A DNA stretch of 51,014 nucleotides. Origin: Patescibacteria group bacterium. GTDB taxonomy: Bacteria > Patescibacteriota > Patescibacteriia > 2-12-FULL-57-11. Both the position numbers and the translations under genes were made by a program. Position 1 is the stretch's first letter; each line of letters starts with the position of its first letter. Under the pieces are notes generated by a model, which ran no database searches, had not been told where the DNA came from, and worked only from the letters and a program-made list of their open reading frames with translations. The stretch spans positions 1 through 51,014 of the forward strand of contig SCSU01000052.1 in NCBI GenBank assembly GCA_004299275.1, read 5' to 3'. Shown piece by piece: positions 22,937-51,014 of the stretch.

Positions 22937-23691
22937 GCGCGACGCCGACTGGTGTCATTCTCGCCGCGGGGATGGGCACGCGGCTCGGGGAACTCACGGC
23001 TGGCATTCCCAAACCGCTCCTACCCGTCGCGGGCCGGCCGCTTTTGGACTACGGCATCTGCTGGATGCGCGCCGCCGGAGTCAAGCGCGTGGTCGTGGTC
23101 GGCGGTTACCGGATTGAACAGCTGCGGGAGTTTTTGGCCGCGCGCCATCCCGATGTTATCTTGGCGGAGAACAAGGAATACGCTACGACTCAGCGCATGG
23201 CTAGCTTGCTCGTTGCCGCGCCGCATATAAGCGGCGACTTGCTGGTCCAGGACGGAGACTATATTTTTACCGTAGCCGCGGCCGCGGCTCTGGCCGGAAA
23301 AATGCCGCCGCGGATTGTCCTCCACGGCACCCGCCGTCCCGATGCCTGCTGGTCGGCGATGGATGTAATTATCAGCACCGCCGCCGATAGCGTTACCGAA
23401 ATCCGTAAGACCGCCGGCACCCAGCCGCTGGGCGAAGGAGAGTATTATTTCAACAGCCAAATTTTTATGCCCGCGAGCGAGGTCGGAGAGTTTATGAGAT
23501 ACGCCGAACGCACTTCAGCGAGCCGCGGCGGCCTGGCGCATGTTGAAGACACGCTGCAGGATTATATTCGTTCCGGCCAGAGCGTTGGTGTGCGCCCGGT
23601 GGAGTCCGGCTTTTGGGTGGAAGTGGACAATCCCGCAGAACTCGAAGCGGCTCGACGTTTCGTCGCTGCCTTTCACGATGATATTCCCTGA
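22933..23691 (+). CDS. Sugar/alcohol-phosphate nucleotidyltransferase (LicC/IPCT-like)
   Basis: ILAAGMGTRL, PKPLL, VGGY, QDGD, WVEVDNPAEL. Confidence 0.85.
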   Translation: MSATPTGVILAAGMGTRLGELTAGIPKPLLPVAGRPLLDYGICWMRAAGVKRVVVVGGYRIEQLREFLAARHPDVILAENKEYATTQRMASLLVAAPHISGDLLVQDGDYIFTVAAAAALAGKMPPRIVLHGTRRPDACWSAMDVIISTAADSVTEIRKTAGTQPLGEGEYYFNSQIFMPASEVGEFMRYAERTSASRGGLAHVEDTLQDYIRSGQSVGVRPVESGFWVEVDNPAELEAARRFVAAFHDDIP

Positions 23692-23693
23692 AC

Positions 23694-24266
23694 ATGACAG
23701 CATTCAAAATCGGAATTGATTTCGACGGCGTCATTGCCGATACCAGTTCGCTTAAACAGGAACAGGCGCGGTTGTTATATGGTGTCAGTATTCCGCCGCA
23801 TCAGTTTAAGGAGCAGCTGGTTACCGGTATGGGAATCCTGACACAACCGCAGTATCGCGCGCTGATGCGCCGAGTCTGCGGCACGCGCGAGGTCGGTCTC
23901 CGCATGGCGCCTCTCCCCGGAGCCGTCCCGAGCTTGCGGCGCCTCTTGGACGGTGGCCACCGCTGCACCGTAATCACTTCGCGCGAAGCGGAGGAGCTTG
24001 CGATTGCCAGCGAGTGGTGCGCGGCGCGGGGACTCGCGCCGGAGTTCGTGTCCGTGGGTTACGCCAAGCCCAAGGTCGAGGTGGCTCGGGGATTGGATGT
24101 CTATATCGATGATGATCTGCAGAAACTCCTGCCGCTTGTCGGCAACACGCCGAATCTGTTTCTTTTTCATCAGAGTTACAACGCGCACGAGGCCGAGCCG
24201 CCCGAGATACGCCGGGTGAGCTCTTGGGCGGAATTAGACGGACATCTTACGCGCCTCGGCGCCTGA
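23694..24266 (+). CDS. HAD-superfamily phosphatase (5'(3')-deoxyribonucleotidase-like)
   Basis: IGIDFDGVIADT, VITSR, K, YIDDD, YN, RVSSW. Confidence 0.8.
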   Translation: MTAFKIGIDFDGVIADTSSLKQEQARLLYGVSIPPHQFKEQLVTGMGILTQPQYRALMRRVCGTREVGLRMAPLPGAVPSLRRLLDGGHRCTVITSREAEELAIASEWCAARGLAPEFVSVGYAKPKVEVARGLDVYIDDDLQKLLPLVGNTPNLFLFHQSYNAHEAEPPEIRRVSSWAELDGHLTRLGA

Positions 24267-24272
24267 CGGCTT

Positions 24273-25328
24273 ATGGAAGACCAGCTCCAGCGGCCGCAGC
24301 CGTTTGAAGACGCGCACTTCAGCCCCGTCGCGGAGATTTTTGGTTTGCGCGGCGGCGTAAATTCGGAGATCCGCTATGTGCGCCTGCCGTCCGGTTTGCT
24401 TACGGTTACCGCGCGTTATGGCGCGAAGAAAAAAGGTTTTTTGCGCGCCGAGGCCAATACCTGGAGTGAAGATATCGTCGCCTATCAGGAGGAACTTTTG
24501 CGCCGCGGCGTGCCGCTGCCGCCGATTGAAGGAATTATCATTGAATTTGACCAAGCCAGCCAAAAGGCGGTTATCGCCAAAACCTCTCCCTGGACCGGCC
24601 ATGACGTCAGCCACCTGATTCAGCACACGCCGCTCGGCAATGACGACAAAATACTTGGCGGCATTGTCGGGCAGATGTGCGCGATTCTGGTGATGGTCTG
24701 CGCCGAACGCCATCGTGGTTACGAGACCGAAATCGGCATAGACTCGCGCTGCAGCAACTTTACCATTGACGCGTCGGGCAAGATGTGGTTCGTTGACCTT
24801 TTCCCTCCGCGTTATCGGAAAGCCGGCGCGCCGCTCCTCGAATGGCCGACGCCGCTGACGGAAGAGGGGAGAGGACTGGGACTCTTTAAACACTACGACG
24901 CGCGCGGAATTACCCTGACGACGATTGCCCAGCTCTCGCGCGTCCTGCCGGCGCAGAAATCTTTTTTTGAGGAACGGGTGCTCGACGGCCTCGCGCCGGC
25001 TTTTAGTCCAGCCGAATTAGCGGCAATGCGGATGGAACTCTCCCGCGCTCCCTGGCGGCAATTGCGTGACCTTCTCGGCGCGACACAGGATACATCCGGC
25101 CGTAAGGACGCGGTCGAGGCAATTTTTGCCTGCCGCGACGCTGTCGTCTTTGGTGTTCCTTATGGAGTTTACGGCCTGCGCGAAGCCGCGCTCGAACTGG
25201 CCGCGGCGGGCCGCTTTTCCGCCCCCGCGTTGGAGGAGTTTTTCCGCGATTCGCATTTTGAGGACTCGCTCCCGAGCTCCGTAATTGATGATCTGACTCA
25301 TCGTCTGCGGCGCGCGGTTGAAGTTTGA
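24273..25328 (+). CDS. Hypothetical protein with probable protein-kinase-like phosphotransferase fold
   Basis: LLRRGVPLP, catalytic-loop-like GIDSRCSNF and DFG-like FVDLFPP; co-transcribed with the NTP transferase. Confidence 0.5.
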   Translation: MEDQLQRPQPFEDAHFSPVAEIFGLRGGVNSEIRYVRLPSGLLTVTARYGAKKKGFLRAEANTWSEDIVAYQEELLRRGVPLPPIEGIIIEFDQASQKAVIAKTSPWTGHDVSHLIQHTPLGNDDKILGGIVGQMCAILVMVCAERHRGYETEIGIDSRCSNFTIDASGKMWFVDLFPPRYRKAGAPLLEWPTPLTEEGRGLGLFKHYDARGITLTTIAQLSRVLPAQKSFFEERVLDGLAPAFSPAELAAMRMELSRAPWRQLRDLLGATQDTSGRKDAVEAIFACRDAVVFGVPYGVYGLREAALELAAAGRFSAPALEEFFRDSHFEDSLPSSVIDDLTHRLRRAVEV

Positions 25329-26091: not shown

Positions 26092-26892
26092 ATGATTCGT
26101 TCGGTTGGCATTTTGGGAGTCGGTTTTGTCGGCGGTGCGACCAAGCGTTACTTTGAGAAGGTCGGGATGCCGGTCGCGGCCCACGACCCTGGCAAGGGGC
26201 TCCACGACCTCGCCGGCGTCAACGCCGCCGACGCGGTTTTTATTAGCGTTCCCACGCCTTATGATGAGCAGAAAGGCGGTTTTGACCTTTCCATGGTCCG
26301 GGAGGCAATCGGTAGTATCACTGGAGAAAAAATAGTAATAATCAAATCCACGGTGCTCCCGGGCACGACCGAAAAATTGCAGCTGGAATTTCCCCAGCAT
26401 AAATTTCTTTTTAACCCCGAGTTTCTGACGCAGATTACGGCCGACCAGGACATGCAATTCCCCGACCGGCAGATAGTCGGCTACACCGAAAAAAGTTACA
26501 CCGTCGCCGCCGACCTCTTGGCGATTCTGCCGCTCGCGCCCTACGAGCGCCTGATGCCGGCGACCGCCGCCGAAATGGTTAAGTATTACGGTAACACCTG
26601 GTTTTCCACTAAGGTAACTTTTGCCAACCAGATGTATGACCTCTCTCTGAAGTTGGGGATTGATTACGACCTAATCCGCGACGCGGTGGCGGCGGACAAA
26701 CGCATCGGCCGTTCGCATTTGGAAGTTTTTCACAAGGGCTACCGCGGCTACGGCGGCGCGTGCTTGCCTAAGGACACTCGCGCCTTGATTCAGCTCGGCG
26801 ACCAGCTCGGCGCGGAGATGGCTCTGCTTAAACTTGTTGACCAGTTAAATAACGACTTGCACCGGAAGCAGGGGCTCGAACCGCCGAAGTGA
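26092..26892 (+). CDS. UDP-glucose/GDP-mannose dehydrogenase family protein (short form lacking the C-terminal domain)
   Basis: GVGFVG, SVPTP, IKSTVLPGTT, NPEFL, AEMVKY, GYGGACLPKD; ends at 266 aa. Confidence 0.88.
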   Translation: MIRSVGILGVGFVGGATKRYFEKVGMPVAAHDPGKGLHDLAGVNAADAVFISVPTPYDEQKGGFDLSMVREAIGSITGEKIVIIKSTVLPGTTEKLQLEFPQHKFLFNPEFLTQITADQDMQFPDRQIVGYTEKSYTVAADLLAILPLAPYERLMPATAAEMVKYYGNTWFSTKVTFANQMYDLSLKLGIDYDLIRDAVAADKRIGRSHLEVFHKGYRGYGGACLPKDTRALIQLGDQLGAEMALLKLVDQLNNDLHRKQGLEPPK

Positions 26893-26967
26893 CGCGCAAT
26901 TCATTGAAGCGCGTCATCTTGAGCGAGACACGTTAAACGGGATGAGTCAAAAGATCTAGATTCCATT

Positions 26968-27951
26968 ATGACCACGGCCGTGACCGGCGGCGCCGGGTTT
27001 ATAGGTTCGCATTGCGTCCGCGCGCTGCTCGCGAGAGGGGAGCGCGTTTTTGTGATTGACGACTTAAACAATTACTACGCTCCGGAAATAAAAAAAGAAA
27101 ACTTGACTCCTTTTTTAGGAAATCCAAATTTTACTTTTGTCCAAGCCGACATCCGCGATCGCGCCGCGGTTGGCGAATTTTTCGCCGCGGCTAAACCCGC
27201 TCGGCTTTTGCATTTGGCCGCCCGCGCCGGGGTTAGACCCTCGATCGAGGACCCGGCACTCTATTACGACGTTAATGTTACCGGCACGAGCGTGGTGCTC
27301 GAGGCGGCGCGGAGAGCTGGCGTCAAAAGCGCGGTGTTGGCTTCCAGTTCTTCAGTCTACGGCGAGCGAAGTGACAATCAGCCGTTCCGCGAGTCGGACG
27401 AACTCGGCGCCTCGAGCTCTCCCTACGGCGCCTCCAAACGGCTGATGGAAATTATCGCCGCCGAGTGGCGGGAGCGCACCGGCATCCCCGCGACCTGCCT
27501 AAGATTTTTTACGGTCTACGGCCCGGCTCAGCGGCCGGATATGGCGATTCACAAATTCGTCCGGGTAATGGAAAAAGGAGAAGCGCTCACCGCCTACGGC
27601 AACGGCGAAAGCCGCCGCGACTATACCTACATCGCGGACACGGTCCGAGGCATCCTCGCGGCGTTGGATAACCCCCGCGACTTTCGCGTTTACAACTTAG
27701 GCAGCGGCCGGGAAAAGAGCGTGACCTTAAAAGATTTAATCGCCTTAATTGAAAAGACGCTCGGAGTGCGAGCGCGAATTGATTGGCAGCCGTTCCAGCC
27801 GGGTGATGTGAGCGCGACACTGGCTGATATCTCTTTGGCCCGCGCCGAGCTCGGTTACGATCCGACTACGACTTTAGAGGAGGGGTTAGAAGAGTTTGTA
27901 AAATGGTATCGGGAGACAAGATTGGATCTCCCGCGGGAGATCCAATCTTGA
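26968..27951 (+). CDS. UDP-glucuronate 4-epimerase-like NAD-dependent epimerase
   Basis: TGGAGFIGS, HLAARAGVRPS, ASSSSVYG, YGASK, RFFTVYGP.QRPDMA, QPGDV. Confidence 0.9.
   Translation: MTTAVTGGAGFIGSHCVRALLARGERVFVIDDLNNYYAPEIKKENLTPFLGNPNFTFVQADIRDRAAVGEFFAAAKPARLLHLAARAGVRPSIEDPALYYDVNVTGTSVVLEAARRAGVKSAVLASSSSVYGERSDNQPFRESDELGASSSPYGASKRLMEIIAAEWRERTGIPATCLRFFTVYGPAQRPDMAIHKFVRVMEKGEALTAYGNGESRRDYTYIADTVRGILAALDNPRDFRVYNLGSGREKSVTLKDLIALIEKTLGVRARIDWQPFQPGDVSATLADISLARAELGYDPTTTLEEGLEEFVKWYRETRLDLPREIQS
27917..27950. repeat. Palindromic element family A, copy 1 (34-bp perfect palindrome)
   Basis: caagattggatctcccgcgggagatccaatcttg; encodes the last residues and most of the stop of the epimerase; lies between convergent genes. 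Confidence 0.9.
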
Positions 27952-40298: not shown

Positions 40299-41114
40299 AT
40301 GAGAAAGTCGTGCCGGACGATGACTAATTGGTTGGCGCTCACTTTGCTTGGAGCGCTGGTTTTGACCGGTTGGGATTGTTCTGTTTCCCTGCCCCCAACC
40401 AATCAAGCGCACATTCGCGCGAATGTGCGCTTGAAGGAAGAAGTTTTGCCGCCTTACGCCAGCCGGCGTTTTTATACTATAGAGAATAATGAGACGGCGA
40501 ATTTTCTTGTCCTAAAAATTGAGCCGGCGCTTTGGTCCTGGGGTCTGGCGGAAGACCCGGCAAAACCCAAGTCCGTGGCCGCCTGGCGTGAGGCGAGCGG
40601 CGCGACAGCGGTTTTGAACGCTGCCTATTTTACCGAGAGCGGCGAGCCCAGCGGTTACTGGAAAAATACGCCGACAGTTCCCGTGAGCGCCATATCTTGG
40701 CCGAAGAAGGGGAGCGGTTACACCGGCACGGTGATGATTAAAGACGGCGCGCTCGCGCTCGCCTATCTTCCGTCAGACGCACCGGATCCGGCGAAATCTG
40801 ACGCGATTTTTCTCACCTTCCCGACGCTCATTGCCGACGGCCGGCCGCTGGTGGAAAAAGAAACCGGTCTCAAAAGCCGGCGCACGGCTCTGGCTGAAGA
40901 CCAGAGCGGCACGGACTACATTATTATTACTGAGGAGGGAATTGTTTCGCTCCACCAGTTCTCCCGCTGGCTTTCCGAGCAACCGGAGCGTTTTACGCGC
41001 GCCGTAAATCTGGACGGCGGGCCGTCAACCGGCCTGTCGCTCAAGGACGGCGGAGAGGCGCTGGAAATACCTTCCGCGCCAGTGCCGAATGTGCTCCTCT
41101 TGCGACGAAGGTAG
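40299..41114 (+). CDS. Phosphodiester glycosidase (NAGPA-like) family exported protein
   Basis: Signal/lipoprotein-like N-terminus, LNAAYF, RRTALA, AVNLDGGPST. Confidence 0.8.
   Translation: MRKSCRTMTNWLALTLLGALVLTGWDCSVSLPPTNQAHIRANVRLKEEVLPPYASRRFYTIENNETANFLVLKIEPALWSWGLAEDPAKPKSVAAWREASGATAVLNAAYFTESGEPSGYWKNTPTVPVSAISWPKKGSGYTGTVMIKDGALALAYLPSDAPDPAKSDAIFLTFPTLIADGRPLVEKETGLKSRRTALAEDQSGTDYIIITEEGIVSLHQFSRWLSEQPERFTRAVNLDGGPSTGLSLKDGGEALEIPSAPVPNVLLLRRR
40403..40434. repeat. Palindrome family B, full 32-bp copy inside CDS
   Basis: tcaagcgcacattcgcgcgaatgtgcgcttga (QAHIRANVRL). Confidence 0.88.
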
Positions 41115-41115
41115 T

Positions 41116-41256
41116 CCCTCGACCTGCCTACTCCGCCAGTTGGCGGATTCGGCAGGCAGGCAAGCTCGGGAACTATAATGAACCCAACCACGCCCCGACG
41201 TAACGTCGGGGCGGTATTCGGGCGAACGTAATAAAGTCTCCGAGTGTAATCGAGGG
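41116..41256. repeat. Composite nested hairpin repeat cluster
   Basis: Outer ccctcga..ctcggg / ccgag..tcgaggg arms enclosing cctgcct..aggcagg (itself enclosing tccgccagttggcgga) and ccccgacgtaacgtcgggg. Confidence 0.7.
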
Positions 41257-41291
41257 GCCGCCTTTTATTTTCCTTCGTTTGATTTCCTCCG

Positions 41292-41320
41292 TTGCCCTGG
41301 TCAGGTTCGTGTGATATAAA
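41292..41320 (+). promoter_or_regulatory. Putative extended -10 sigma70 promoter (TTGCCC-N17-TATAAA, TG motif); strong SD AGGAGG before ATG 41359
   Basis: Direct sequence match; ggcaggaggaggatgaaATG. Confidence 0.55.
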
Positions 41321-41358
41321 TTTCGCGCTCGTTAGATGACGGGCAGGAGGAGGATGAA

Positions 41359-42381
41359 ATGAGGAGTCGGCAGTCAGCCGAGACAGCCGGAAAGCTGGCG
41401 CTTCGGCGCATCGAGGAGCTGGACAGCGACCCGCGGGAAAGACTCGGCGAGTTGAGCCGCTACCTGCGGCACTTCCGCGGCTATCCGATTCTCCGCGAGC
41501 AGGCGGATTTCGACGCGCTCCACCGGCAATACCGGTTGGCCAAGGGTGAGCAAAAGACGCGTGCCCGCGACTTGCTGGTCTACGGCAACATCCGGCTCGT
41601 GGTCTGGGTGGCGCGGCGCTACGTTGGGCGAGGTGTGCCGCTCTCTGACCTGCTACAGGAGGGCGTGCTCGGAGTGATGCGAGCGATTGACCTCTTTGAT
41701 CAGTCGCGAGGCACGCGTTTCAGCTCCTATGCCGTGTCGAGCATCCGTCGGCGCATCCGTCGGGTGATTGAAGACGCCAACGAGCGCGGCGCCTTCCGGA
41801 TTCCGAAACATTTGCAGACGAAGATGCGTCAGATTTCGCAGGTGGAAAACCATCTGACGAAAATCCTCGGCCGCCCGGCCACGAATCGCGAGATCCTCGA
41901 CCGCTTGGGTGAATCGCCGGCAAAGACCGCGCTGACGGTGCGGATTGCCGACATTCTTTACTACCAGCGGCGGTGGAAACGCGGCAACGGCAAACAGTCG
42001 CTGGACGCGCCGCTCCTCGCGGAAGGGCTCGATACGCGCACGCTCCATGACGTGGTCGGTGACCTCGGGAAGAATACCGAGGTTCTTCTCGAGGCGCAGA
42101 TGCTCCTCGAAAATCACGAACGCGCGCTCGAGAATCTGGTGCGGAGCGCGGCGCGGGTAAACGCCCGCGACGGGATGCTCCTGAGCAAACGGTTGGGGCT
42201 CGGCAATTTCGAGTCAGCAACGCTCAAGGAGACCGGCGCGGAGGTCGGGGTATCGCGCGAGCGGATTCGGCAGATCGAACGGTGCGCGGCGGCTCGAGTT
42301 GGGCTGACCGTGAGTGAGCTCTGGGAAATCGTCGCCGCGCGCGAACGGCTGGTGAAGCTCGTCTCACTGCTCGCCGGTTAA
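41359..42381 (+). CDS. Divergent RpoD-like sigma-70 family factor
   Basis: Region 1.2-like YLRHFRGYPIL; region 2 NIRLVVWVARRY..RG..DLLQEG.LG.MRAIDLFD.SRG.RFSSYA; region 3 SLDAPL; region 4 TLKETG..VGVSRERIRQIE. Confidence 0.88.
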   Translation: MRSRQSAETAGKLALRRIEELDSDPRERLGELSRYLRHFRGYPILREQADFDALHRQYRLAKGEQKTRARDLLVYGNIRLVVWVARRYVGRGVPLSDLLQEGVLGVMRAIDLFDQSRGTRFSSYAVSSIRRRIRRVIEDANERGAFRIPKHLQTKMRQISQVENHLTKILGRPATNREILDRLGESPAKTALTVRIADILYYQRRWKRGNGKQSLDAPLLAEGLDTRTLHDVVGDLGKNTEVLLEAQMLLENHERALENLVRSAARVNARDGMLLSKRLGLGNFESATLKETGAEVGVSRERIRQIERCAAARVGLTVSELWEIVAARERLVKLVSLLAG

Positions 42382-42406
42382 GAGCGACGCCTGTCGCTCT
42401 TTTTTT
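42380..42406 (+). terminator. Rho-independent terminator
   Basis: aagagcgac-gcct-gtcgctctt hairpin running into a T7 tract right after the stop. Confidence 0.8.
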
Positions 42407-42478
42407 GTTGGACAACGGCGGCCAGAAGTTGTAGCGTAGCGGCGGGTTCTTTACCGACGACCCGGGAAGGAGGATTCA

Positions 42479-43900
42479 ATGGAGGTTTTTTGCCAGATCG
42501 CCGAAGGCGATGTGTCCGAGGATTTCTGCAGCCGCGAACAGGGGAAACCGGAGTGTCAGGGGTGCGTGGCGCCGACTCGTCGTTGTACGGCCTGCAAAAA
42601 ATCCGGCCACCTGGTTGAGCCGCGCCTGGGGCTCTGCGCCGTCTGTCAGCGGGCGAAGGGCAACGGAACAGTAGAGCAGCGCCGGAGCGTGGAGCACCTC
42701 CTCGAGGAACGAACGGCAGCCTTGCGCAAGATTTCGTCTTCGCGCCGGTTCTCGGCCGCCGCTGAACCCGTAGTTGCGCCAGAACCGGCAACCATCGGTT
42801 CGTCAGTCATCGAGGCGATTGATGGGCTGAGTGATCGCAAACGGGAGGTGCTCCGGCTGCTGCTCGGACTGGACGGCGGCGGCGTCCGCACACTGCCGGA
42901 GACGGCCGAAAAGCTTGGCGTCTCCCCGCGCGCGATTTACATGGCGAAGTACGAAGCCGTTAGTTTGCTCCGCGGCCGCGTCTCGGAGCAGGAGCTCGAG
43001 GCGATCAGGCGTTCTATCCCGCGGGGCAAGCGGGAGCGGAGGCGGGCGGTTCCAGCGCCGCCGCCTATGAGCGCCAGTCCGGTCCAAGAGCCAGTTCCGG
43101 TATCGGTTCCGCTCGCTGACGGAGTTGTCGCCATTTCTCAATCGTCAGCGATGCCAGCGGCGGCGAAAGCAACGAAGGCGACTTTGTCGCCGGCGGCGAG
43201 TAAGCCGGAACGCGGACCAAAGGCGGCCGACGCCGCGGCGAAACCGTTGCGAGAGGGCAGAGGGACCGTTTCCCGTTTGCGCGCCAACGACTTGTCCGCG
43301 GCGGTCATCAAGGCGATAGGTCGGTTGCCGGAATTGCAGGCGCGGATTATTCGTCTGCGTCTCGGGATCGGCATTGCCCGGAAGCGTTACCTCCACGAGA
43401 TTGCCAAGGAACTGTGTGTCTCCGAACGCACAGTTCTTCATCACCAGGAGCGGGCGACCGTTGCTCTGCGTCAGTTGCTCACGGACGACGCTTACGCGCG
43501 CGTGTTTAGGATCCTGCGCAGCAGACCGGATCGGCACGAAGCCGGTCGCCGGAGAAGTCACGGGGTCGCCACGAGCGCTCGCCGCGCTGACCAAAACACC
43601 CGGTTTTTCTCCGACGATGATAGGCAGGCGATGCAGAAGCTGCTTTCCCTGCCTGACGCGGGGAAGGGAGAGGTTTTCACTGATCAACGGAGTGAGTCTT
43701 TCGGTTCGGCCGCCGCGATCAGCCGACTGCTCCAGGTTGACCCGCGTCGCCTCAAGTCGTTCCTCACCGTCCACAAGCGCCGCATCCGCCTGCGTTCCGC
43801 GCGGAACGCCAAGGGGGAGACGATACTCTGTTGGTCGTTCACGGATATACAGGGGATCCTCACCTCGTGGATCAGGGCGCAGTTGGCGAAGTCCTCTTAG
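42479..43900 (+). CDS. Uncharacterised protein: 8-Cys Zn-binding N-terminus + two sigma-70 region 4 HTH domains + possible C-terminal HTH
   Basis: C5,C17,CxxC,CxxC,CxxC; LSDRKREVLRLLLGLDGGGVRTLPETAEKLGVS; LPELQARIIRLRLGIG...LHEIAKELCVSERTV; SD gaaggagg upstream. Confidence 0.75.
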   Translation: MEVFCQIAEGDVSEDFCSREQGKPECQGCVAPTRRCTACKKSGHLVEPRLGLCAVCQRAKGNGTVEQRRSVEHLLEERTAALRKISSSRRFSAAAEPVVAPEPATIGSSVIEAIDGLSDRKREVLRLLLGLDGGGVRTLPETAEKLGVSPRAIYMAKYEAVSLLRGRVSEQELEAIRRSIPRGKRERRRAVPAPPPMSASPVQEPVPVSVPLADGVVAISQSSAMPAAAKATKATLSPAASKPERGPKAADAAAKPLREGRGTVSRLRANDLSAAVIKAIGRLPELQARIIRLRLGIGIARKRYLHEIAKELCVSERTVLHHQERATVALRQLLTDDAYARVFRILRSRPDRHEAGRRRSHGVATSARRADQNTRFFSDDDRQAMQKLLSLPDAGKGEVFTDQRSESFGSAAAISRLLQVDPRRLKSFLTVHKRRIRLRSARNAKGETILCWSFTDIQGILTSWIRAQLAKSS

Positions 43901-43905
43901 TTCAC

Positions 43906-43940
43906 CGCAGGCGGCGCAGACGCGCAACCTGCGTTTTTTT
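43906..43940 (+). terminator. Putative Rho-independent terminator
   Basis: cgcagg...cctgcg stem followed by T7. Confidence 0.6.
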
Positions 43941-44023
43941 ATTTTTAAGTCATCCGCGTTTTTTGGCGGAGTCAAATTTTTTCCAGCTATTCTTTACTCA
44001 CTATCCTGCCTTTGGCGGGACCC

Positions 44024-44046
44024 CGCCCCGACGTAACGTCGGGGTG
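44024..44046. repeat. ccccgacgtaacgtcgggg palindrome, second copy (first at 41191-41213)
   Basis: Identical 19-bp core on both sides of the sigma island. Confidence 0.85.
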
Positions 44047-44062
44047 GCTCACGACCAACGAC

Positions 44063-44131
44063 TCACCTTCGATATTCAAAAATCATCACTTTGCCGCCGG
44101 CGATCGGCCAAACCGCGTCGGCGGTTTTTTG
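44063..44131 (-). pseudogene. Diverged duplicate of the last 23 codons of the 44280-46409 gene
   Basis: QKTADAVWPIAGGKVMIFEYRR* versus QKTADSFWSIASGKVMIFEYRR*; 10 mismatches in 69 nt by manual alignment. Confidence 0.8.
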
Positions 44132-44204
44132 CCCGCGCCAGTGCCGAATGTGCTCATATTAAAAAAAGTGAGTCGTGAGTTGTGAGTCGCGGGTAGTTTT
44201 TTCT

Positions 44205-44240
44205 CTCCGCCAAAAAACGCTATAGCATTTTTTGGCGGAG
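44205..44240. repeat. Hairpin ctccgccaaaaaa...ttttttggcggag flanked by inverted heptamer arrays
   Basis: 13-bp stem; gtgagtcgtga (44168) is complementary to tcacgactcac (44273). Confidence 0.65.
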
Positions 44241-44279
44241 TCGAATTTTTTCCACTACACACTACTCTCTATTCACGAC

Positions 44280-46409
44280 TCACCTTCGGTATTCAAATAT
44301 CATCACCTTGCCGCTGGCGATTGACCAAAAGCTGTCGGCGGTTTTTTGCGCTTCGGCATCGAGTTGCGGAAAGCGTTTCCAGTAGTCGTGGAGCATCAGG
44401 TAAACCGTATCCACGCCGTAATCGTCCAGCACTTTTTGCATCAGCTCGCGCGTCGGACCATTGTATGTCGCCTCGAGATAGTAGCCGTAAAGCTTGAGAC
44501 TGCCAGATGGGTGTGAGTAATAGAATTCGTCTTTAACGTAGCGGGAAAAACCGTAGCGCCAGATTTCCGCCGCCGCCGCGGTTTGGTTGGCGAGAACAAC
44601 ATAACTGCCGCTTGCCCGTGTGTGGAGGAAATCCACGGCTTCCACGGTCGCCGCGGAAACGCTCCGGTTGCCGGTTTTTTCTTCCGGGTCAACTCGGGGA
44701 TAGGCCAGATAGACTGCGGCGGGGACGGCGAGCGACAAGGCCAGCGCGAGAGCCAGACGGCGGTAGGGAGTTCGCAAAAATTTTTCGGCAATGAGGATTG
44801 CTCCCGAGAGAGCGAGAGGAAAAAGGAAGATTCCGGCGAGGCCGACAAAGCGGACGGGGAAAATCGCTTGTTCATAACCGATAATGCCCGGGAGTTTGAC
44901 GGCAGCGGCAAGCAGGAAGCCGCCCGCCGCGGTCGCGAGCGCGCCGGCGATGAAGACGCCGGCTAGCCGACGTTCACCCTGCTTCTTTCGGAGCGCGAAA
45001 AGTAAGGCGAGCAGCAGCACGATTAGCGGCAAATAAGTCCGCGCTGAATAGATGAGCGTGCGTCCGGGAGAAAAGGTGCGCAAGGTTGGCGCCGGAAAGA
45101 CGGTTTGCGCGAGCTGGGTGAGCCGTTCGCGGCCGCCTTGGAGCGAGAGCGCTGGCGCGAGGCGGCTTTGGGAGAAAAAGGCCGCGGTGGGGAAGATGAG
45201 CAATGCCGCGAGGCAGGTGGTAACGAATCCTCGGCGGAGCCGAGGATTTTTTACGCGCGCTCGGGAGTAGGCGAGCGCGAGCAGGAGCAAGGCGGGAACG
45301 CCGGCGAGTGGATGGACGGCGAGCGCGGCTAGCGCGGCGGCAAGAGGTAAGAGCCAGCGTTCTTTTTGCTGGATGGCGCGGAAGGCAAAAACCGCCGCAA
45401 GCAGGGCGAGGGCATTGGCGATGCCTTGCGGCGTGGTAGCGATAAAGTCTGCAAGCGGTCCGAAGGCGGCCAATAAAATTGCCAAGGGGAGAGAGGTGGT
45501 AAGTAGAGCGGCAGAGACGAGCGCGAGCCAGCCGACAGCCGGACCGGCAAAACGATTGACCTCATGGAGCGGCAGAGCGGTCAGCCGCGAGAACGACACT
45601 AAATCAACATAGGCGCCGATGTAGTAGGGTGTTTTGGGAAGCACGGCGCCGTTCGCGGCAATCTCGCGCATGGCCGCCTCGTGGATAAAGGGGTCAAAGC
45701 CGTAGCCGATTTTATAAATCGCGGCGCCGGCAAAAAGTCCGAGACCGAGAGTGAATGCGGCGAGAATGGCGGCGAGCCGCCGTTCGGTGAGTTTTGTTCC
45801 GAGGGTGACAGCGGCAAAGACAGCCAAGCCGAGGAGCGGCAAAAATCGCGGCGAGACAACTTCCCATGGCGTGCGGATGGCTTCGACTGTTCCCGAGTTA
45901 AAAAGAATTACGGCCGCTAAAACGAGTGAGGTTAAACCAATAAGAGCGACAAGCAATTCAAGTTTCGAGGTCCCGAGTTTCGAGATTGGATCTCCCCCGC
46001 CTACGCTAAAGCTTCCTCCTTCGCTTGCGCTACGGCGGACAGGTCGGCGGGCAGGCGTGGAGATCCAATCTCGTCCAGCTGCACCCCAAGCAAAAAAACC
46101 GGCAACCGCGCCGAGCGCGAGTAAGGCGACGATTGCGAACAAATTCCATTGCCAGAGGTAATAGACAGCCGTGGCGGCAATGGTCCACGAGGCGACGACC
46201 AAGAGCGCGCCGCGAATAACCAAGGTCAGACCTCCTGCAGGAGGTCTGACCTTGGACGCCACCGCGCTGGAAAGCAAAAACCCGTACAAAAGCATTGCCG
46301 GCACTCCCAAAAAAGGCGTATGAAACACAGCGGCATTCAAGGCCAGAGCGGCTACCGCGAGCGCCACCCCCATGCTATAGTGTTTGCGATTAAGGCGCAG
46401 AAATTTCAT
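44280..46409 (-). CDS. Large polytopic membrane protein, probable GT-C fold
   Basis: 709 aa, many hydrophobic segments, GYGFDPFIH loop motif, soluble C-terminal domain; carries two in-frame repeat insertions. Confidence 0.6.
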   Translation of the reverse strand: MKFLRLNRKHYSMGVALAVAALALNAAVFHTPFLGVPAMLLYGFLLSSAVASKVRPPAGGLTLVIRGALLVVASWTIAATAVYYLWQWNLFAIVALLALGAVAGFFAWGAAGRDWISTPARRPVRRSASEGGSFSVGGGDPISKLGTSKLELLVALIGLTSLVLAAVILFNSGTVEAIRTPWEVVSPRFLPLLGLAVFAAVTLGTKLTERRLAAILAAFTLGLGLFAGAAIYKIGYGFDPFIHEAAMREIAANGAVLPKTPYYIGAYVDLVSFSRLTALPLHEVNRFAGPAVGWLALVSAALLTTSLPLAILLAAFGPLADFIATTPQGIANALALLAAVFAFRAIQQKERWLLPLAAALAALAVHPLAGVPALLLLALAYSRARVKNPRLRRGFVTTCLAALLIFPTAAFFSQSRLAPALSLQGGRERLTQLAQTVFPAPTLRTFSPGRTLIYSARTYLPLIVLLLALLFALRKKQGERRLAGVFIAGALATAAGGFLLAAAVKLPGIIGYEQAIFPVRFVGLAGIFLFPLALSGAILIAEKFLRTPYRRLALALALSLAVPAAVYLAYPRVDPEEKTGNRSVSAATVEAVDFLHTRASGSYVVLANQTAAAAEIWRYGFSRYVKDEFYYSHPSGSLKLYGYYLEATYNGPTRELMQKVLDDYGVDTVYLMLHDYWKRFPQLDAEAQKTADSFWSIASGKVMIFEYRR
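45981..46073. repeat. Triple-nested in-frame repeat (family A 33 bp containing family D 30 bp containing family D 30 bp)
   Basis: cgagattggatctcc[cccgcctacgctaaagcttc[ctccttcgcttgcgctacggcggacaggtc]ggcgggcagg]cgt ggagatccaatctcg = 93 bp. Confidence 0.85.
46220..46255. repeat. Palindromic element family A variant (36-bp perfect palindrome, in frame)
   Basis: ccaaggtcagacctcctgcaggaggtctgaccttgg (SKVRPPAGGLTLV). Confidence 0.88.
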
Positions 46410-46463
46410 AAATAATATACCTTCGGCATTGTAGCACGAGCGCGTTTAATTTATGGTGTGTGG

Positions 46464-46673
46464 CCCGGCAGTGAAACGCCGACAGTTTAGTAAACGTCAT
46501 CTCGACCAGCGTGGAGAGAACTTCAATTCGGCGATGACGATTGAGAATTGAAGATCCCTCGGCTTCGCTCGGGATGACAGTAAAGTCTAGAATCCAACCT
46601 AATATAGTAAAAACGAATGTTCGCTGGCTGAACCCCACCTGGCGGGGTTCGGAGTCAGCGTTCTACTGCCGGG
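46464..46673 (+). mobile_element. Non-autonomous TIR-bounded structured element, copy 2, carrying a REP-like insert
   Basis: Same termini and inner gaacccc/ggggttc hairpin as 32887-33032. Confidence 0.65.
46496..46578. repeat. REP/REPIN-like element family C (GTCAT...ATGAC), copy 1
   Basis: gtcatctcgacc..gtggagagaacttcaattc...gaattgaagatccctcggcttcgctcgggatgac. Confidence 0.85.
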
Positions 46674-46713
46674 TGGGTGATAGGGAATAGGGGATAGAGT
46701 AAATAAACAATGT

Positions 46714-48324
46714 ATGGAAAAATTTTCGCGCAGGCAAAAAATTCTGCTGGCAATAATCGCTTTCGCCTTTTTTTTCTCGTCGTCCCTGCTCTCTTTCGCC
46801 AACCTTATTCGTCCAGCCGGCATCTCGCCGCATTTTGACTGGCCGGATGAGACGATGAACGCCTTTTTTGCCAAGCGATTTGCCGAGTTCGGCTCTTTGC
46901 GCGCGCCGCTTTTTTTCGGTAGCGAGCTGGTGCGGCCGCGGAGCTTTAACGTGCAAAACGGCGCTCTCGTGCCCGGCGGTTTCCTCGGCCTGCCGCTTTT
47001 ATACGGCGCGGTGATTAAATTTTTCGGAGTGAACGCGTCGCTGTTTGCCACGCCGTTCCTCGCCGCGCTGGCGCTCCTCGCCTTTGGCGGATTAGTTCGC
47101 CGTCTTTTGGGCGCCCGTATTGCGCTCCTCGCCGTGCTCCTTGCCGCGGCGCACCCGGCAGTCTGGTATTACTCGAGCTACAGTTATCTGCCGAATGTTC
47201 CCTATATCGCGTTTCTATTATTTTCCGCGTATTTAGCCGTCGCCGGATTTTCTTCAGCGCAAAAGAAAAAAAAGCTGTTCCTTATCGCGGCCGCCGGCGC
47301 TCTGCTCGGCATCGCGCTCGCTATCCGCACTAATGAAATACTTTGGATTGCCGCGGCGTTAATACTTGCTTTGGCGTTCACCGACGTTTGGCGTCAAGCG
47401 CGGCCGGTTGCGCTTTTCCTCACCGCCGCCGTGATTTTTTTCGCGCCAATTTTTTGGTATCAGTGGCAGACTTTCGGCAGTGCGCTCACTACTGGCTATT
47501 CGCGTTTCACCGAAACAGGCGTCGCGGCGCCGACGGAATTCGCCGCCGCCGCCGCCTCGCCGCTCAAGATCGCTTTTTCCGCCCTGCTCCTGCCTTACGG
47601 GTTTCATCCGCGCGTTATCTGGTACAACTTCTGGCGCTCCTGGCTCGCCTTGGCACCCTGGGCCAGCGTGCCGTTCTTTTTGGCGGCTGCCGCTTGGTTT
47701 TTGCGCAAAAAAAAGCAGCCGGCCGAGCGCGCTTTTTCCGCGGTTATTACCGTGGCGACGGTCTGGCTCCTCGCCGCCTACGGCAGCTGGATGCTCGCTG
47801 ACCCGCTCATGCTTAAGTTAAATACTATTGGCTTGTCGCACGTCCGTTACTGGCTGCCGTTTGTTTTTTTTGACGCGGTGATTCTCGCTTGGGCCCTGGC
47901 GCGTCTTAAAGAGCGGGGGAGAGTGTGGCATTTGGCGACCGGCATTTTTCTTGCCGCCTACCTCGCGTTTTCCGCTTGGCTGGTTTTTTGGAAAGCGCCG
48001 GAAAGTTTGCTTTACGTCGCCGAGCGCGTTCGTCTTTACAACGTCGCCGCGAAAACTATCGTGGAAAAAACCGAACCAAACGCGGTAATCATCACCGACC
48101 GCACGGACAAAGAAATTTTTCCCGACCGGGCGGTAGTAGCCGGTCTTCAGCTCGGCGACCTATCTACAGTCTGTAGCATTTCTGGTCCGGTTTATGTTTA
48201 TACCGTCATGACCGATTTGGAAGATAATGTAGCGGATACCTCTTGGGTGGTTCTGCCTCGTGCCGGTTACGCTCTTTGGCTAGTTGCGGATTCTACCGAC
48301 CGGTGCACCGCTGACACAGACTGA
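46714..48324 (+). CDS. GT-C fold (family 39-like) membrane glycosyltransferase
   Basis: FDWPDE first-loop motif, GIALAIR.NE, RYWLP, many TM segments. Confidence 0.7.
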   Translation: MEKFSRRQKILLAIIAFAFFFSSSLLSFANLIRPAGISPHFDWPDETMNAFFAKRFAEFGSLRAPLFFGSELVRPRSFNVQNGALVPGGFLGLPLLYGAVIKFFGVNASLFATPFLAALALLAFGGLVRRLLGARIALLAVLLAAAHPAVWYYSSYSYLPNVPYIAFLLFSAYLAVAGFSSAQKKKKLFLIAAAGALLGIALAIRTNEILWIAAALILALAFTDVWRQARPVALFLTAAVIFFAPIFWYQWQTFGSALTTGYSRFTETGVAAPTEFAAAAASPLKIAFSALLLPYGFHPRVIWYNFWRSWLALAPWASVPFFLAAAAWFLRKKKQPAERAFSAVITVATVWLLAAYGSWMLADPLMLKLNTIGLSHVRYWLPFVFFDAVILAWALARLKERGRVWHLATGIFLAAYLAFSAWLVFWKAPESLLYVAERVRLYNVAAKTIVEKTEPNAVIITDRTDKEIFPDRAVVAGLQLGDLSTVCSISGPVYVYTVMTDLEDNVADTSWVVLPRAGYALWLVADSTDRCTADTD

Positions 48325-48350
48325 TAATTTGCCGGACAGCAGGGTGCGTT

Positions 48351-48938
48351 ATGCAACAAGCAATAATTAAACGCATTGGCTGGTTAGCGGTTGCGCTCGC
48401 GCTCGCATTTTTTGTCATTTCCGAAATTGGCATTCAGAGAACGCAAACATTGGAGACGGATTTTTTGTCGGGTAATCGCTCTTTTTCCGCTCTCGGTCCG
48501 CCGACGCGGATTGACGGACGCGACGCCACTACCGGCAACACAAAAATCGTCGGCGAGCCGGTGTATTTTGACGTTCGCTTGCCGGTGCTGACCGAACGCG
48601 CAAGCGTGACAATTGTTTGGGACAAAACGCCGACATTGCCAGACCCGCAAATCGGCGTGGTTCTCGGCGGCTTTGACGAACCTGACCAGCGCTTCGCGCT
48701 TTATCCGCCTGAGGCAGTTCGAAGTGATGTCGGGACGTTGGATGTCGGGACGTTGGACGTCCGGCGCTGGACGTCCAACGTCCAAGTTGACCTCCGCGGC
48801 GTGCCGCGGCGCGACGGGGGAGTACGCTTCCTTATCTCCATTCCCGGCGCGTCTTCCACCACGCCGTTTTTCCTCGGCCCTGTACAGATTGCCGCTTCAC
48901 GCCCGCCGTTCGGTGAGGTGTTGAGGAGATTTAAATAA
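48351..48938 (+). CDS. Hypothetical membrane-anchored protein
   Basis: N-terminal TM segment, 195 aa, co-oriented; contains an in-frame repeat insert. Confidence 0.65.
   Translation: MQQAIIKRIGWLAVALALAFFVISEIGIQRTQTLETDFLSGNRSFSALGPPTRIDGRDATTGNTKIVGEPVYFDVRLPVLTERASVTIVWDKTPTLPDPQIGVVLGGFDEPDQRFALYPPEAVRSDVGTLDVGTLDVRRWTSNVQVDLRGVPRRDGGVRFLISIPGASSTTPFFLGPVQIAASRPPFGEVLRRFK
48726..48783. repeat. In-frame 36-bp hairpin (ggacgttggacgtcc-N6-ggacgtccaacgtcc) with overlapping 15-bp tandem duplication
   Basis: Encodes DVGTLDVGTLDVRRWTSNVQ. Confidence 0.8.
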
Positions 48939-48940
48939 TT

Positions 48941-49123
48941 GTCATCTCGACCCTTGTGGAAAGAACTTCAATTCGTCAATGCAATAAGAATTGAAGATCC
49001 CTCGGCTTCGCTCGGGATGACACGGTTTCCGTCATAAAACATCCGTCATCTCGACCCTTGTGGAGAGAACTTCAATTCGTCAATGATAAGAATTGAAGAT
49101 CCCTCGACTTCGCTCGGGATGAC
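48941..49123. repeat. Two tandem copies of REP/REPIN-like family C (48941-49021, 49045-49123)
   Basis: Near-identical to 46496-46578. Confidence 0.88.
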
Positions 49124-49132
49124 AGAGAACCT

Positions 49133-49324
49133 ATGAATCTAAAAACACAGATTTCAGAAATATCCAAACACCTCGCCGCGCCGGTAGCCGCGCTGGCCTT
49201 TGGTTCCCTTTTTTTGGAACTGCTCGCCCCGGGCATCGTCTCGCGTTGGCTTCCATTGCCGCTCTTTTTCTTTAGCTTGCTTTTGTTGGCGCTTGTGGCA
49301 CACTTATTCGCAAATTCGGATTGA
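49133..49324 (+). CDS. Small hypothetical membrane protein
   Basis: 63 aa, two hydrophobic segments, co-oriented with its neighbours. Confidence 0.5.
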   Translation: MNLKTQISEISKHLAAPVAALAFGSLFLELLAPGIVSRWLPLPLFFFSLLLLALVAHLFANSD

Positions 49325-49345
49325 TTCGTTATTCGCAACCTCTGT

Positions 49346-49756
49346 ATGACTGGCTGCATTTTTTGCAAAATCGCGTCCAAGCAGATTCCCGCCAATGTTG
49401 TTTATGAAGACAAAATGACGCTTGCCTTTTTGGACATCCATCCGGTGAATCCCGGGCACACTTTAGTCATTCCCAAAGAACACGCGCCGACGTTGCTTGA
49501 ATCATCTCGCGAGTCAGCGCACGCGGTCGTGGACACGGTGCAAAAAATTACGCCAGCCATTCTCGCCGCGGTCGGTTCGCCGGCATTTAACCTCGGGGTC
49601 AACACCGGTTCAGCGGCCGGACAGGCCGTCCATCACTTCCATCTCCACATTATGCCGCGTTTTGACGCCGACGGCCGCGAGCTTTGGCACGGACGCGAAA
49701 CGGTGCCGGGCGAGCTCGAGGCCGTGGCGGCGAAAATCAAGGAGCGGTTAGAATAA
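49346..49756 (+). CDS. HIT family protein
   Basis: CIFCKI, FLDIHP.NPGHTLVIPK.H, AGQAVHHFHLHIMPR histidine triad. Confidence 0.93.
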   Translation: MTGCIFCKIASKQIPANVVYEDKMTLAFLDIHPVNPGHTLVIPKEHAPTLLESSRESAHAVVDTVQKITPAILAAVGSPAFNLGVNTGSAAGQAVHHFHLHIMPRFDADGRELWHGRETVPGELEAVAAKIKERLE

Positions 49757-49830
49757 TTGTGGAAAAAGTGCTGGTACCTAAAACTCAGCAGGTGCGTAAA
49801 AATGGGTACCGGTGGTATTGGTGATTTTTT

Positions 49831-50847
49831 ATGAAATTACTTGTTTGCGGCGGCGCGGGGTTTATCGGCTCCAATTTTATCCGGCACATCCTTACGGCGC
49901 GCGAGGATGTCCAAGTGATAAATTACGATAAGCTGACTTACGCCGGGAATTTGGACAACCTCGCGGCGGTAGCGGAAAATTCCCGCTATCGCTTTGTCCA
50001 AGGCGACATCAGCGACGCCGAGGCAGTAGATTCGGTTTTTGCCGAACACCAGCCGGACGCGGTGGTCAATTTCGCCGCCGAGACGCACGTGGACCGCTCC
50101 ATTCACCTCGGCTCGCGCGAGTTTGTGCTGACCAATGTTGTCGGCGTGCAAACACTACTTGACGCTTGCCGTCGCCATGGCACGAAAAAGATAGTCCAGA
50201 TTTCAACTGACGAGGTCTACGGTTCGCTCGCGCTCGACGAAACGCGAAAATTCATCGAAACAACGCCGTTCGCTCCTAATCCGCCCTACGCCGCGGCCAA
50301 GGCCGGCGGCGACCTCATCTGCCGCGCCTACTTCCAAACTTTCAAAGTCCCGGTGATCGTTACCCACTGTTCCAACAACTACGGGCCATATCAGTTTCCG
50401 GAAAAGCTGATTCCGTTTTCCATCTTTAAAGCGCTGGCCGATGAACCAGTGCCGATTTACGGCGACGGTCTTTATGTGCGCGACTGGATCCACGTGCTGG
50501 ACCATTGCCGGGCAATCCAGGCGATTTTGGAGCGGGGGAGTGCCGGCGAGGTCTACAACATCGGCGCGGACAACGAACGAGCGAACCTTGACGTGGTCAA
50601 GATGATTCTGGCCGAACTGGGCAAACCGGAAACGCTGATGGAACAAGTTGCCGATCGGCCCGGGCATGACCGCCGCTACGCCATTGATGCCTCAAAAATT
50701 ACCCGCGAGCTCGGCTGGCGGCCGAACTATACGCGGGAAAAATTCGCCGACGGTTTGCGCGAAACAATCAGCTGGTATCGGGAGAACACCGCTTGGGTGG
50801 AAAAATTGCGAAAAAGACAAGCGGAAATTAACGCGCACATTCGGTGA
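49831..50847 (+). CDS. rfbB: dTDP-glucose 4,6-dehydratase
   Basis: GGAGFIGSNF, DKLTYAGN, FAAETHVDRSI, STDEVYG, CSNNYGPYQFPEKLIP, DRPGHDRRYAID. Confidence 0.95.
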   Translation: MKLLVCGGAGFIGSNFIRHILTAREDVQVINYDKLTYAGNLDNLAAVAENSRYRFVQGDISDAEAVDSVFAEHQPDAVVNFAAETHVDRSIHLGSREFVLTNVVGVQTLLDACRRHGTKKIVQISTDEVYGSLALDETRKFIETTPFAPNPPYAAAKAGGDLICRAYFQTFKVPVIVTHCSNNYGPYQFPEKLIPFSIFKALADEPVPIYGDGLYVRDWIHVLDHCRAIQAILERGSAGEVYNIGADNERANLDVVKMILAELGKPETLMEQVADRPGHDRRYAIDASKITRELGWRPNYTREKFADGLRETISWYRENTAWVEKLRKRQAEINAHIR

Positions 50848-50851
50848 GCAC

Positions 50852-50883
50852 GAGATCGGATCTCCTGCAGGAGATCCGATCTC
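50852..50883. repeat. Palindromic element family A, intergenic copy (32-bp perfect palindrome)
   Basis: gagatcggatctcctgcaggagatccgatctc. Confidence 0.88.
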
Positions 50884-50901
50884 TGGCGAACCAGAAGTTG
50901 T

Positions 50902-51014
50902 ATGCCAGAACTCATAACCACCTCCATCCAAGGTCTAGATGTCCATTTGCAAAAAGTCGTCGGCGACTCGCGCGGTATTTTGGCGGAGATGCTCCAGGGC
51001 GGCGTTGAAAATCC
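50902..51014 (+). CDS. Probable dTDP-4-dehydrorhamnose 3,5-epimerase (RmlC-like), 3' truncated
   Basis: MPELITTSIQGLDVHLQKVVGDSRGILAE has the D.RG..E motif; follows rfbB. Confidence 0.65.
   Translation, partial: MPELITTSIQGLDVHLQKVVGDSRGILAEMLQGGVEN

Follow-up and report, generated by a model that had tools for sequence, protein, structure and literature searches.

An alternative sigma factor of a Patescibacteria genome with serines in place of the tryptophan dyad

The region 2.3-2.4 helix and its conservation

The window analysed here, a 51,014-nt stretch of DNA from a Patescibacteria group bacterium, is contig C67 of a 1.0-Mb genome (73 contigs, 100% complete by markers). At 41359-42381 (+ strand) it carries a gene for a 340-amino acid (aa) alternative sigma factor of the sigma-70 family, recognized from the open reading frame (ORF) list, Pfam, NCBIfam, an AlphaFold2 (AF2) model and Foldseek, in which the tryptophan dyad (W-dyad) of region 2.3-2.4 has been replaced along with the residue that reads position -12. 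We propose that this protein is probably a functional alternative sigma with shifted specificity, weak in melting DNA by itself and stringent in its choice of promoters. The helix in question, RFSSYAVSSIRRRI (41716-41757, +, from the translation), corresponds to KFSTYATWWIRQAI in the genome's own RpoD (longer stretch on contig C7: KFSTYATWWIRQAITR) and to fkfstyatwwirqaitr in HMMER alignments of solved SigB/SigA chains. S127 and S128 (codons TCG and AGC, 41737-41742) stand in place of the W-dyad, R131 in place of Gln, and R132 and R134 in place of Ala and Thr, and region 2.4 is strongly basic (IRRRIRR). F121 and Y124, the equivalents of Escherichia coli F427 and Y430, are kept.

Along the protein, an N-terminus resembling region 1.2 is followed by sigma2, an insertion-bearing sigma3, sigma4 and a C-terminal helix of ~30 aa. 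The core-binding motif DLLQEG of region 2.2 (residues 97-102; 41647-41664, +) and the recognition helix SRERIRQIE of region 4.2 (residues 299-307; 42253-42279, +) were located in the ORF translation and in alignments: D97, Q100, E101 and G102 are invariant or nearly so, and R300, E301, R302, I303, R304, Q305 and E307 are invariant in the first family alignment (A1). Pfam finds Sigma70_r2 (PF04542, 63 bits, cut-off 24) and Sigma70_r4 (PF04545, 31.4 bits, cut-off 24.1), and no match to r1_1 (PF03979), r1_2 (PF00140) or r3 at E<=0.01. The AF2 model, built on 38 family sequences, has a mean predicted local distance difference test score (pLDDT) of 87.6, and Foldseek aligns it to sigmaS and sigmaA chains with probability 1.00 over 283-341 columns. 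Because this alignment spans ~300 columns, sigma3 and the linker are present despite the missing Pfam r3 match. A reading made from the sequence alone had pointed to the altered helix, to the retention of DLLQEG and SRERIRQIE and to the lack of region 1.1; translation of RFSSYAVSSIRRRI against the canonical RpoD motif of the same genome, the alignments and the Pfam search bear out all of these points.

A word-indexed search returned five proteins with identities of 31-37%, followed by generic RpoDs; its RpoD-like matches carry regions 1.1 and 1.2 (PF03979/PF00140). An exhaustive search of 1.84 billion representatives gave 45 proteins below E 1e-30, whose full-length identity never exceeds 37%. 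Where the source of a homologue is named, it is Candidatus Falkowbacteria, the Parcubacteria group or Candidatus Jacksonbacteria, and the genomes of relatives measure 0.6-1.6 Mb. A 43-row clade including the sigma is split from the RpoD-like rows, the genome's own RpoD among them, with 98 in the Shimodaira-Hasegawa-like approximate likelihood ratio test (SH-aLRT), in a quick LG+G4 tree of 77 rows that does not settle the position of the sigma within the clade. The region-3 insertion and an extension of ~30 aa after region 4 are features of the whole clade in two alignments. Genomes G001, G018 and G041 have an ordinary RpoD besides their clade member. Among the six other genomes of the same taxonomic family, a clear orthologue is present in G001 and a distant relative (1e-20) in G003, and the remaining four have matches only at the level of their own RpoD. 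As far as seen, this clade of RpoD-derived alternative sigmas is restricted to small genomes like those of the candidate phyla radiation (CPR)/Patescibacteria. The genome itself has seven matches to sigma region 2: a canonical RpoD (WW, contig C7), this sigma, two paralogues on contig C23 and three of the extracytoplasmic function (ECF) type. Since the genome encodes a separate housekeeping RpoD with WW, this sigma is an accessory regulator.

At columns with at least 80% conservation in the 38-row family alignment, the sigma keeps the consensus in 40 of 45, the departures being T123S, W128S, A136V, P174A and L196I; 10 of the 38 family members have more departures. This sigma is no RpoD in decay, given its open frame, confident fold, conserved columns, own ribosome-binding site (RBS; AGGAGGAGG at 41346-41354, +, a few bases 5' of the ATG at 41359) and an intrinsic-terminator-like hairpin found by sequence scan directly 3' of its stop (42380-42401, +; 9-bp stem and T-run). 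Damage, if it is damage, is limited to one face of a single helix. The sequence-only reading had taken WW in close homologues as the mark of simple decay; no homologue exceeds 37% identity, most of the distant family members retain the second Trp (35 of 38), and the remainder of this sigma shows no decay.

We compared the dyad across 157 sequences (148 best representatives, the query sigma, five word-search matches and three paralogues from the same genome). Both positions are Trp in 112, the second is Trp in 148 and missing from the other nine, and the SS dyad is unique to this sigma; the Gln position holds Gln in 134 and Arg in four. In the 38-row alignment the first dyad position is W in 22, H in five, N in three, K, Q and G in two each, and S and R in one each; judging from these rows, the first Trp is free to vary within the clade. 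The second position is W in 35 rows, with S in this sigma, G in P0126 and A in P0148. The Gln position is occupied by Q (26), A (4), R (3), H (3), S (1) and N (1), while the F427-equivalent is F in 32 of 38 and the Y430-equivalent Y in 34 of 38. Arg replaces Gln in exactly the three rows without the second Trp (W434-equivalent), and in none of the 35 others.

P0126 shares 45% identity with the sigma of G195, which keeps the Trp and the Gln, and 33-34% with each of the two further rows that lack WW; it pairs with the G195 sigma at SH-aLRT 98 in the 77-row tree, a pairing that hints at more than one origin of the loss of WW. On a tree built without the motif columns the dyad state changes three times. 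In the approximately unbiased (AU) test a single origin of the three WW-less rows is not rejected (p-AU 0.586), the tree held to it being better by 3.59 log-likelihood units, and trees and test together neither show nor reject their monophyly. A working alternative sigma is favoured under either count: with one origin the state has been kept down to ~33% identity, and with several the same pair of changes has recurred. At least about eight nucleotide changes would separate the SS..RRR.R codons from presumed ancestral WW..RQA.T codons, which suggests that the change in the helix is old. A search for related loci did not return the own contig of P0126 among metagenome contigs (best match 35%), nor that of P0148 among genome contigs, where the best match was a short unrelated stretch.

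Proposed mode of action and competing explanations

In NCBIfam the sigma matches models of RpoS and RpoD best (E 1e-41 to 1e-38), every one with a score far below its cut-off. Group 1 is excluded by the RpoD models (TIGR02393, 131.6 against 354 bits; NF004208, 111.8 against 555), by the lack of PF03979/PF00140 and by SS and Arg in place of W-dyad and Gln. The closest likeness is to group 2 (RpoS, mycobacterial SigB, cyanobacterial SigB-E), which provides the best matches (NCBIfam RpoS, 7.7e-41; PDB SigB, 6.4e-28; Foldseek sigmaS) and shares the absence of region 1.1, dispensability beside RpoD and a conserved region 4.2. Group 2 sigmas keep WW and Gln, however, whereas this protein has the region-3 insertion and the C-terminal extension, belongs to a separate clade, and scores 140.5 against a cut-off of 378.7 bits with TIGR02394 and 123.3 against 464 with NF005920. 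With group 3 (FliA, QR; sigma-32, HW; Bacillus SigF/SigB) it has in common the status of an alternative sigma, the sigma2-3-4 architecture and the lack of a W-dyad; these sigmas still initiate, and according to an extract of PMC10216364 their weaker wedges go with slower open-complex formation. A SigF/SigG-like row in our comparison, P0191, has PM at the dyad. Similarity to group 3 is lower, though (TIGR02980, SigBFG, 88.9 against 234.35; TIGR02392, RpoH, 97.2 against 323.1; FliA models are not among the NCBIfam matches listed), and unlike group 3 the clade is of RpoD-like CPR descent and has mostly kept the second Trp. Two-part or helper-dependent initiation factors exist in other systems, namely sigma-O/RsoA of Bacillus subtilis, gp55 with gp33 of phage T4, and CarD/RbpA of mycobacteria. 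There a second protein supplies sigma4-like or fork functions, and the neighbour of this sigma has two sigma4-like helix-turn-helix (HTH) domains; in contrast to such factors, this sigma has its own sigma2 and sigma4, and no CarD-type domain was found in the genome. MzaA, the anti-phage sigma of MZA, shares sigma-70 domains with it (NCBIfam 3e-36, PADLOC 2.5e-25), but NF041931 gives 125.5 against a cut-off of 800 bits and the match covers only model positions 469-695 of a protein of ~700 aa. We rejected a defence or phage origin: in the sigma and neighbour genes PADLOC matches no family other than MzaA, and that through the sigma domain, and the PHROGs matches are generic sigma families.

A sigma of this kind would bind core RNA polymerase through its unchanged region 2.1-2.2, and the holoenzyme would dock at a TTGACA-like -35 element read through the unchanged region 4.2. 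The flipped -11 base would be held by the retained aromatics F121 and Y124, beside a face at the -12/-11 fork that has been rebuilt by Ser-Ser for Trp-Trp and Arg for Gln, Ala and Thr. Arg at these last three positions would shift the base preference at -12/-13, and may take over contacts with the fork. Because the aromatic wedge is gone, spontaneous melting is expected to be slow or weak; opening would be slow and would need a near-ideal or easily melted -10 element, as in group 3/4 sigmas. Alternative sigmas are reportedly poor at melting, a thesis ascribed to Koo et al. in 2009, and this is said to make them stringent. A shift in specificity had been among the ideas of the sequence-only reading, and it is the one favoured here.

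The same reading had started from the premise that a sigma without WW is deficient in melting, which is not supported: sigma-32 with HW, sigma-28 with QR and sigma-E with R/I all work. The extract of PMC10216364 ranks transcription and open-complex activity by dyad as WW > HW (sigma-32) > QR (sigma-28), places H107 as the wedge of sigma-32 in the position of W433, and describes the W-dyad as common in group 1, with other, mostly bulky residues in other sigmas. In sigma-E, as far as an extract of PMC6648896 goes, R76 and I77 occupy the dyad positions, N80 acts as the wedge, and Trp substitutions at the dyad positions are harmful. Since these three sigmas use other residues, the absence of a W-dyad does not in itself mean a dead sigma.

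Several observations weigh against a specificity-shifted sigma that still opens promoters. The two Ser are small and polar, smaller than any residue named in the two extracts and unlike the bulky residues that other sigmas have at these positions (PMC10216364), so that melting may truly have been lost. The Trp/Gln co-variation may be a single event, because one origin for the three rows is compatible with the AU test. The sigma is a singleton, with nothing above 37% identity, and in the 77-row tree it sits at the end of a long branch (1.16; median 0.66). TGGACA-N17-TAGCGT, present 5' of the neighbour gene, has as a regulon motif two matches in the genome, and looser forms of it show no pattern. 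Finally, the proposal is drawn from sequence and a structural model. RNA datasets with the sequence of this region were looked for and none was listed. The same DNA is present in groundwater metagenome runs; contigs of two runs are identical over 41206-44000 and thus offer no population variation usable for the sigma, and a third run gave short, unlike pieces.

The sigma could instead depend on a partner, unable to open DNA unless joined by the protein encoded next to it, which has an eight-cysteine module (Cys8) and two sigma4-like HTHs and would supply additional promoter contacts or stabilize the fork. We regard this as unlikely. A Cys8 gene does lie beside a sigma in six of the ten genomes that have one (of 401 searched), and a partner body of the G001 type is fused to the sigma in eight family members. 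Yet a terminator-like hairpin separates the sigma from the next gene, the partner body of this window is not homologous to the fused one (E 0.074; the Cys8 module alone is shared), and four of the ten genomes showed no sigma beside Cys8 by the region-2.2 motif and by Pfam of a part of the neighbours. Among the 23 proteins that carry the module are ParB proteins, integrases and further HTH proteins, so the module is not specific to sigmas, and WW-keeping relatives have partners too, so a partner does not explain the loss of WW. The earlier idea of a link to the next gene is nevertheless strengthened by the adjacency and the fusions, which make a functional tie between the clade sigmas and such partners likely; that the tie runs through the Cys8 module itself is only a guess. 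A bolder and slightly less likely version makes sigma and neighbour a two-part initiation device peculiar to CPR bacteria, in which a group-2-type sigma would have given up its wedge and -12 reader and would depend for promoter opening on the Cys8 protein, bound either to DNA close by or to the C-terminal helix of the sigma, an arrangement that sister lineages would have hard-wired as a fusion or joined to superfamily 2 (SF2) helicases. If true, this would be a sigma-70 scaffold on which promoters are opened with the assistance of a helper.

We know of no natural decoy sigma. A decoy or brake would bind core polymerase and/or TTGACA-type -35 elements and never melt, sequestering polymerase or occluding promoters, and the sequence-only reading had offered this role, to which we found nothing pointing. 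Intact core-binding and -35 motifs beside an absent wedge would fit it, as would the absence of any CarD/TRCF-RID-type helper domain from a genome that is complete by markers. It is nonetheless improbable: a pure decoy has no need of the -11 pocket aromatics or of the whole sigma3 and linker, all conserved here, the change of Gln to Arg with the loss of Trp in three family members looks like re-specification and not like loss, and non-Trp wedges work in other sigmas (PMC10216364, in extract). Just as improbable in our view is relaxed selection, under which an accessory gene acquired horizontally would be in drift, with the SS/RRR helix as its earliest visible damage. The long branch of a singleton, the patchy distribution within the family (a clear orthologue in one of six other genomes), the duplicated gene junction of which one copy contains the cassette and the other looks empty, and the GC content of 0.628 in 42001-44000 against 0.58-0.59 in the adjoining DNA all agree with such a history; the open frame, the 40 of 45 conserved columns and the confident fold model do not, nor does the concentration of the changes on one functional face.

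The W-dyad counts as a hallmark of promoter opening of the RpoD type, and a sigma of clear RpoD descent that has replaced it along with the -12 reader is a natural experiment on how much of the helix is needed. Should the protein prove active, the motif of its promoters would reveal the effect of Arg for Gln and of the lost Trp on -10 recognition. In full-text literature, supplements excluded, we found no description of such sigmas in CPR bacteria, and little if anything surfaced there on transcription control in these organisms; the clade, in which sigmas with adjacent or fused multi-HTH partners and sometimes helicases occur, would be an undescribed group of CPR alternative sigmas.

The neighbouring gene and the Cys8 module

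The neighbouring gene (42479-43900, +) has its own RBS and encodes 473 aa, whose domains were delimited with Pfam, NCBIfam, three alignments and an AF2 model. Residues 1-62 are the Cys8 zinc-type module, with eight invariant Cys in the pattern C-x11-C-x8-C-x2-C-x6-C-x2-C-x13-C-x2-C. They are followed by a sigma-r4-like HTH (~105-175), a disordered Pro/Ala linker (183-267), a second sigma-r4-like HTH (~265-335) and a C-terminal winged-helix-like domain (residues 409-472). The model has a pLDDT of 62, and its Cys8 part is too weak for a fold search. The last helix (43835-43900, residues ~453-473) reads LTSWIRAQLA, which recalls the WWIRQAI of sigmas and may well be chance. A terminator-like hairpin lies 3' of the gene (43918-43936, +, sequence scan). 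Pfam and NCBIfam gave no anti-sigma domain or zf-HC2 match at E<=0.01 that would identify the protein as a zinc-binding anti-sigma factor (ZAS). A single-sequence word search with the Cys8 module matched its own protein alone, and the best score in Protein Atlas was 0.81, with a template modelling (TM) score <0.5. A complex prediction of the sigma with residues 1-175 of the neighbour and two Zn scored 0.00, which allows no conclusion either way.

Of 401 genomes of the class, a Cys8 profile matches 10 at E<1e-4 and 21 at E<=0.01. A clade sigma lies directly 5' of the Cys8 gene on the same strand in G000 (the present genome), G001, G018 and G195; the adjacent sigma is divergent in G003, and in G362 a 1249-aa fusion of DEAD/HA2 helicase and sigma takes its place, also divergent. 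No sigma was seen in the flanks of the Cys8 genes of G072, G120, G123 and G231, where the check consisted of the region-2.2 motif and of Pfam for a part of the neighbours. In G001 and G195 the gene after the partner encodes an SF2 helicase. Nothing comparable stands beside the sigma of this window, and the match to this helicase elsewhere in the genome, on contig C6, is only generic (E 6.4e-11). The eight members in which a G001-type partner body is joined to the C-terminus of the sigma, as recognized by eye, are P0132, P0135, P0137, P0138, P0141, P0147, P0186 and P0190, with residues 394-763 of P0137 matching residues 157-468 of the G001 partner at E 1e-17. The body of the neighbour protein in this window is homologous neither to the fused bodies nor to the partner bodies of G001, G018 and G195.

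The G362 fusion (L056:1123-4872, -) combines a DEAD/Helicase_C/HA2/OB helicase with C-terminal sigma-70 r2, r3 and r4, and is divergent from a gene for Cys8 and HTH_3. In G018 a 147-aa ORF 3' of the sigma-partner pair (L029:4652-5095, -) resembles, by eye, a small IS200-type transposase. The 23 proteins headed by the Cys8 module (among them L054:3721-5103, +, and P0270-P0291) have varied bodies: ParB_N with HTH_ParB (11), tyrosine recombinase (2), FtsK-gamma, HTH_3 and an S25-like winged helix. Within the ParB group, two tandem copies of the module occur in G003, and all named sources of the 23 proteins are of CPR type.

Genomic setting of the two genes

The sigma gene may be transcribed from a candidate promoter of housekeeping type at 41292-41320 (+), picked out by eye and consisting of TTGCCC, a 17-nt spacer and TATAAA with TG one base upstream of the -10; it was not listed by the consensus scan because the scan demands T at position 6. 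The sigma gene and that of the Cys8/double-HTH protein arrived as, or sit in, a two-gene cassette of 2.85 kb. On its 5' side is the 3' end of a NAGPA-family gene (N, 41074-41101, +), of which a 28-nt copy, 93% identical, recurs at 44133-44160 (N'). On its 3' side, 43956-44132 (no strand assigned) holds a copy (M') of the spacer and 3' end of a convergent gene for a 709-aa membrane protein, the original (M) being at 44225-44349; the copy includes a 51-nt hairpin-repeat insertion. The resulting layout of N, cassette, M', N', short spacer and M looks like a tandem duplication of the convergent-gene junction with the cassette in one copy only. The duplication, the raised GC content and the patchy distribution suggest that the sigma-partner pair is accessory and transferable.

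As possible ends of a mobile element we considered the hairpin at 41187-41214/44020-44047 and a 47-nt element at 41115-41161, and rejected both, as they are dispersed over many contigs. The ~47-nt element occurs on at least 10 other contigs, and a ~60-nt element (43995-44055) around the palindrome CCCCGACGTAACGTCGGGG on at least eight. These dispersed repeats raise contig depth ~9-fold at 41100-41196 and resemble repetitive extragenic palindromic (REP)-like or terminator elements.

Elsewhere in the genome, the two RpoD-like paralogues of contig C23 are arranged in tandem (21907-23058, +, and 23070-24620, +) with HW and WW dyads, are sisters at SH-aLRT 100, and lie within 5 kb of an ECF sigma gene (26359-27024, -). 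The cassette itself sits inside an island of surface-glycan genes that covers nearly the whole window (1-40300 and 44280-51014). The island includes two NeuB-type nonulosonic acid synthases, one of them fused to an AP_endonuc_2 TIM barrel, a CMP-sugar transferase (cytidylyltransferase), a fusion of ketopantoate hydroxymethyltransferase and methyltransferase, and many epimerases and methyltransferases. It also encodes GT2, GT4 and PMT-like transferases, an initiating sugar transferase and an S8 protease with FG-GAP repeats.

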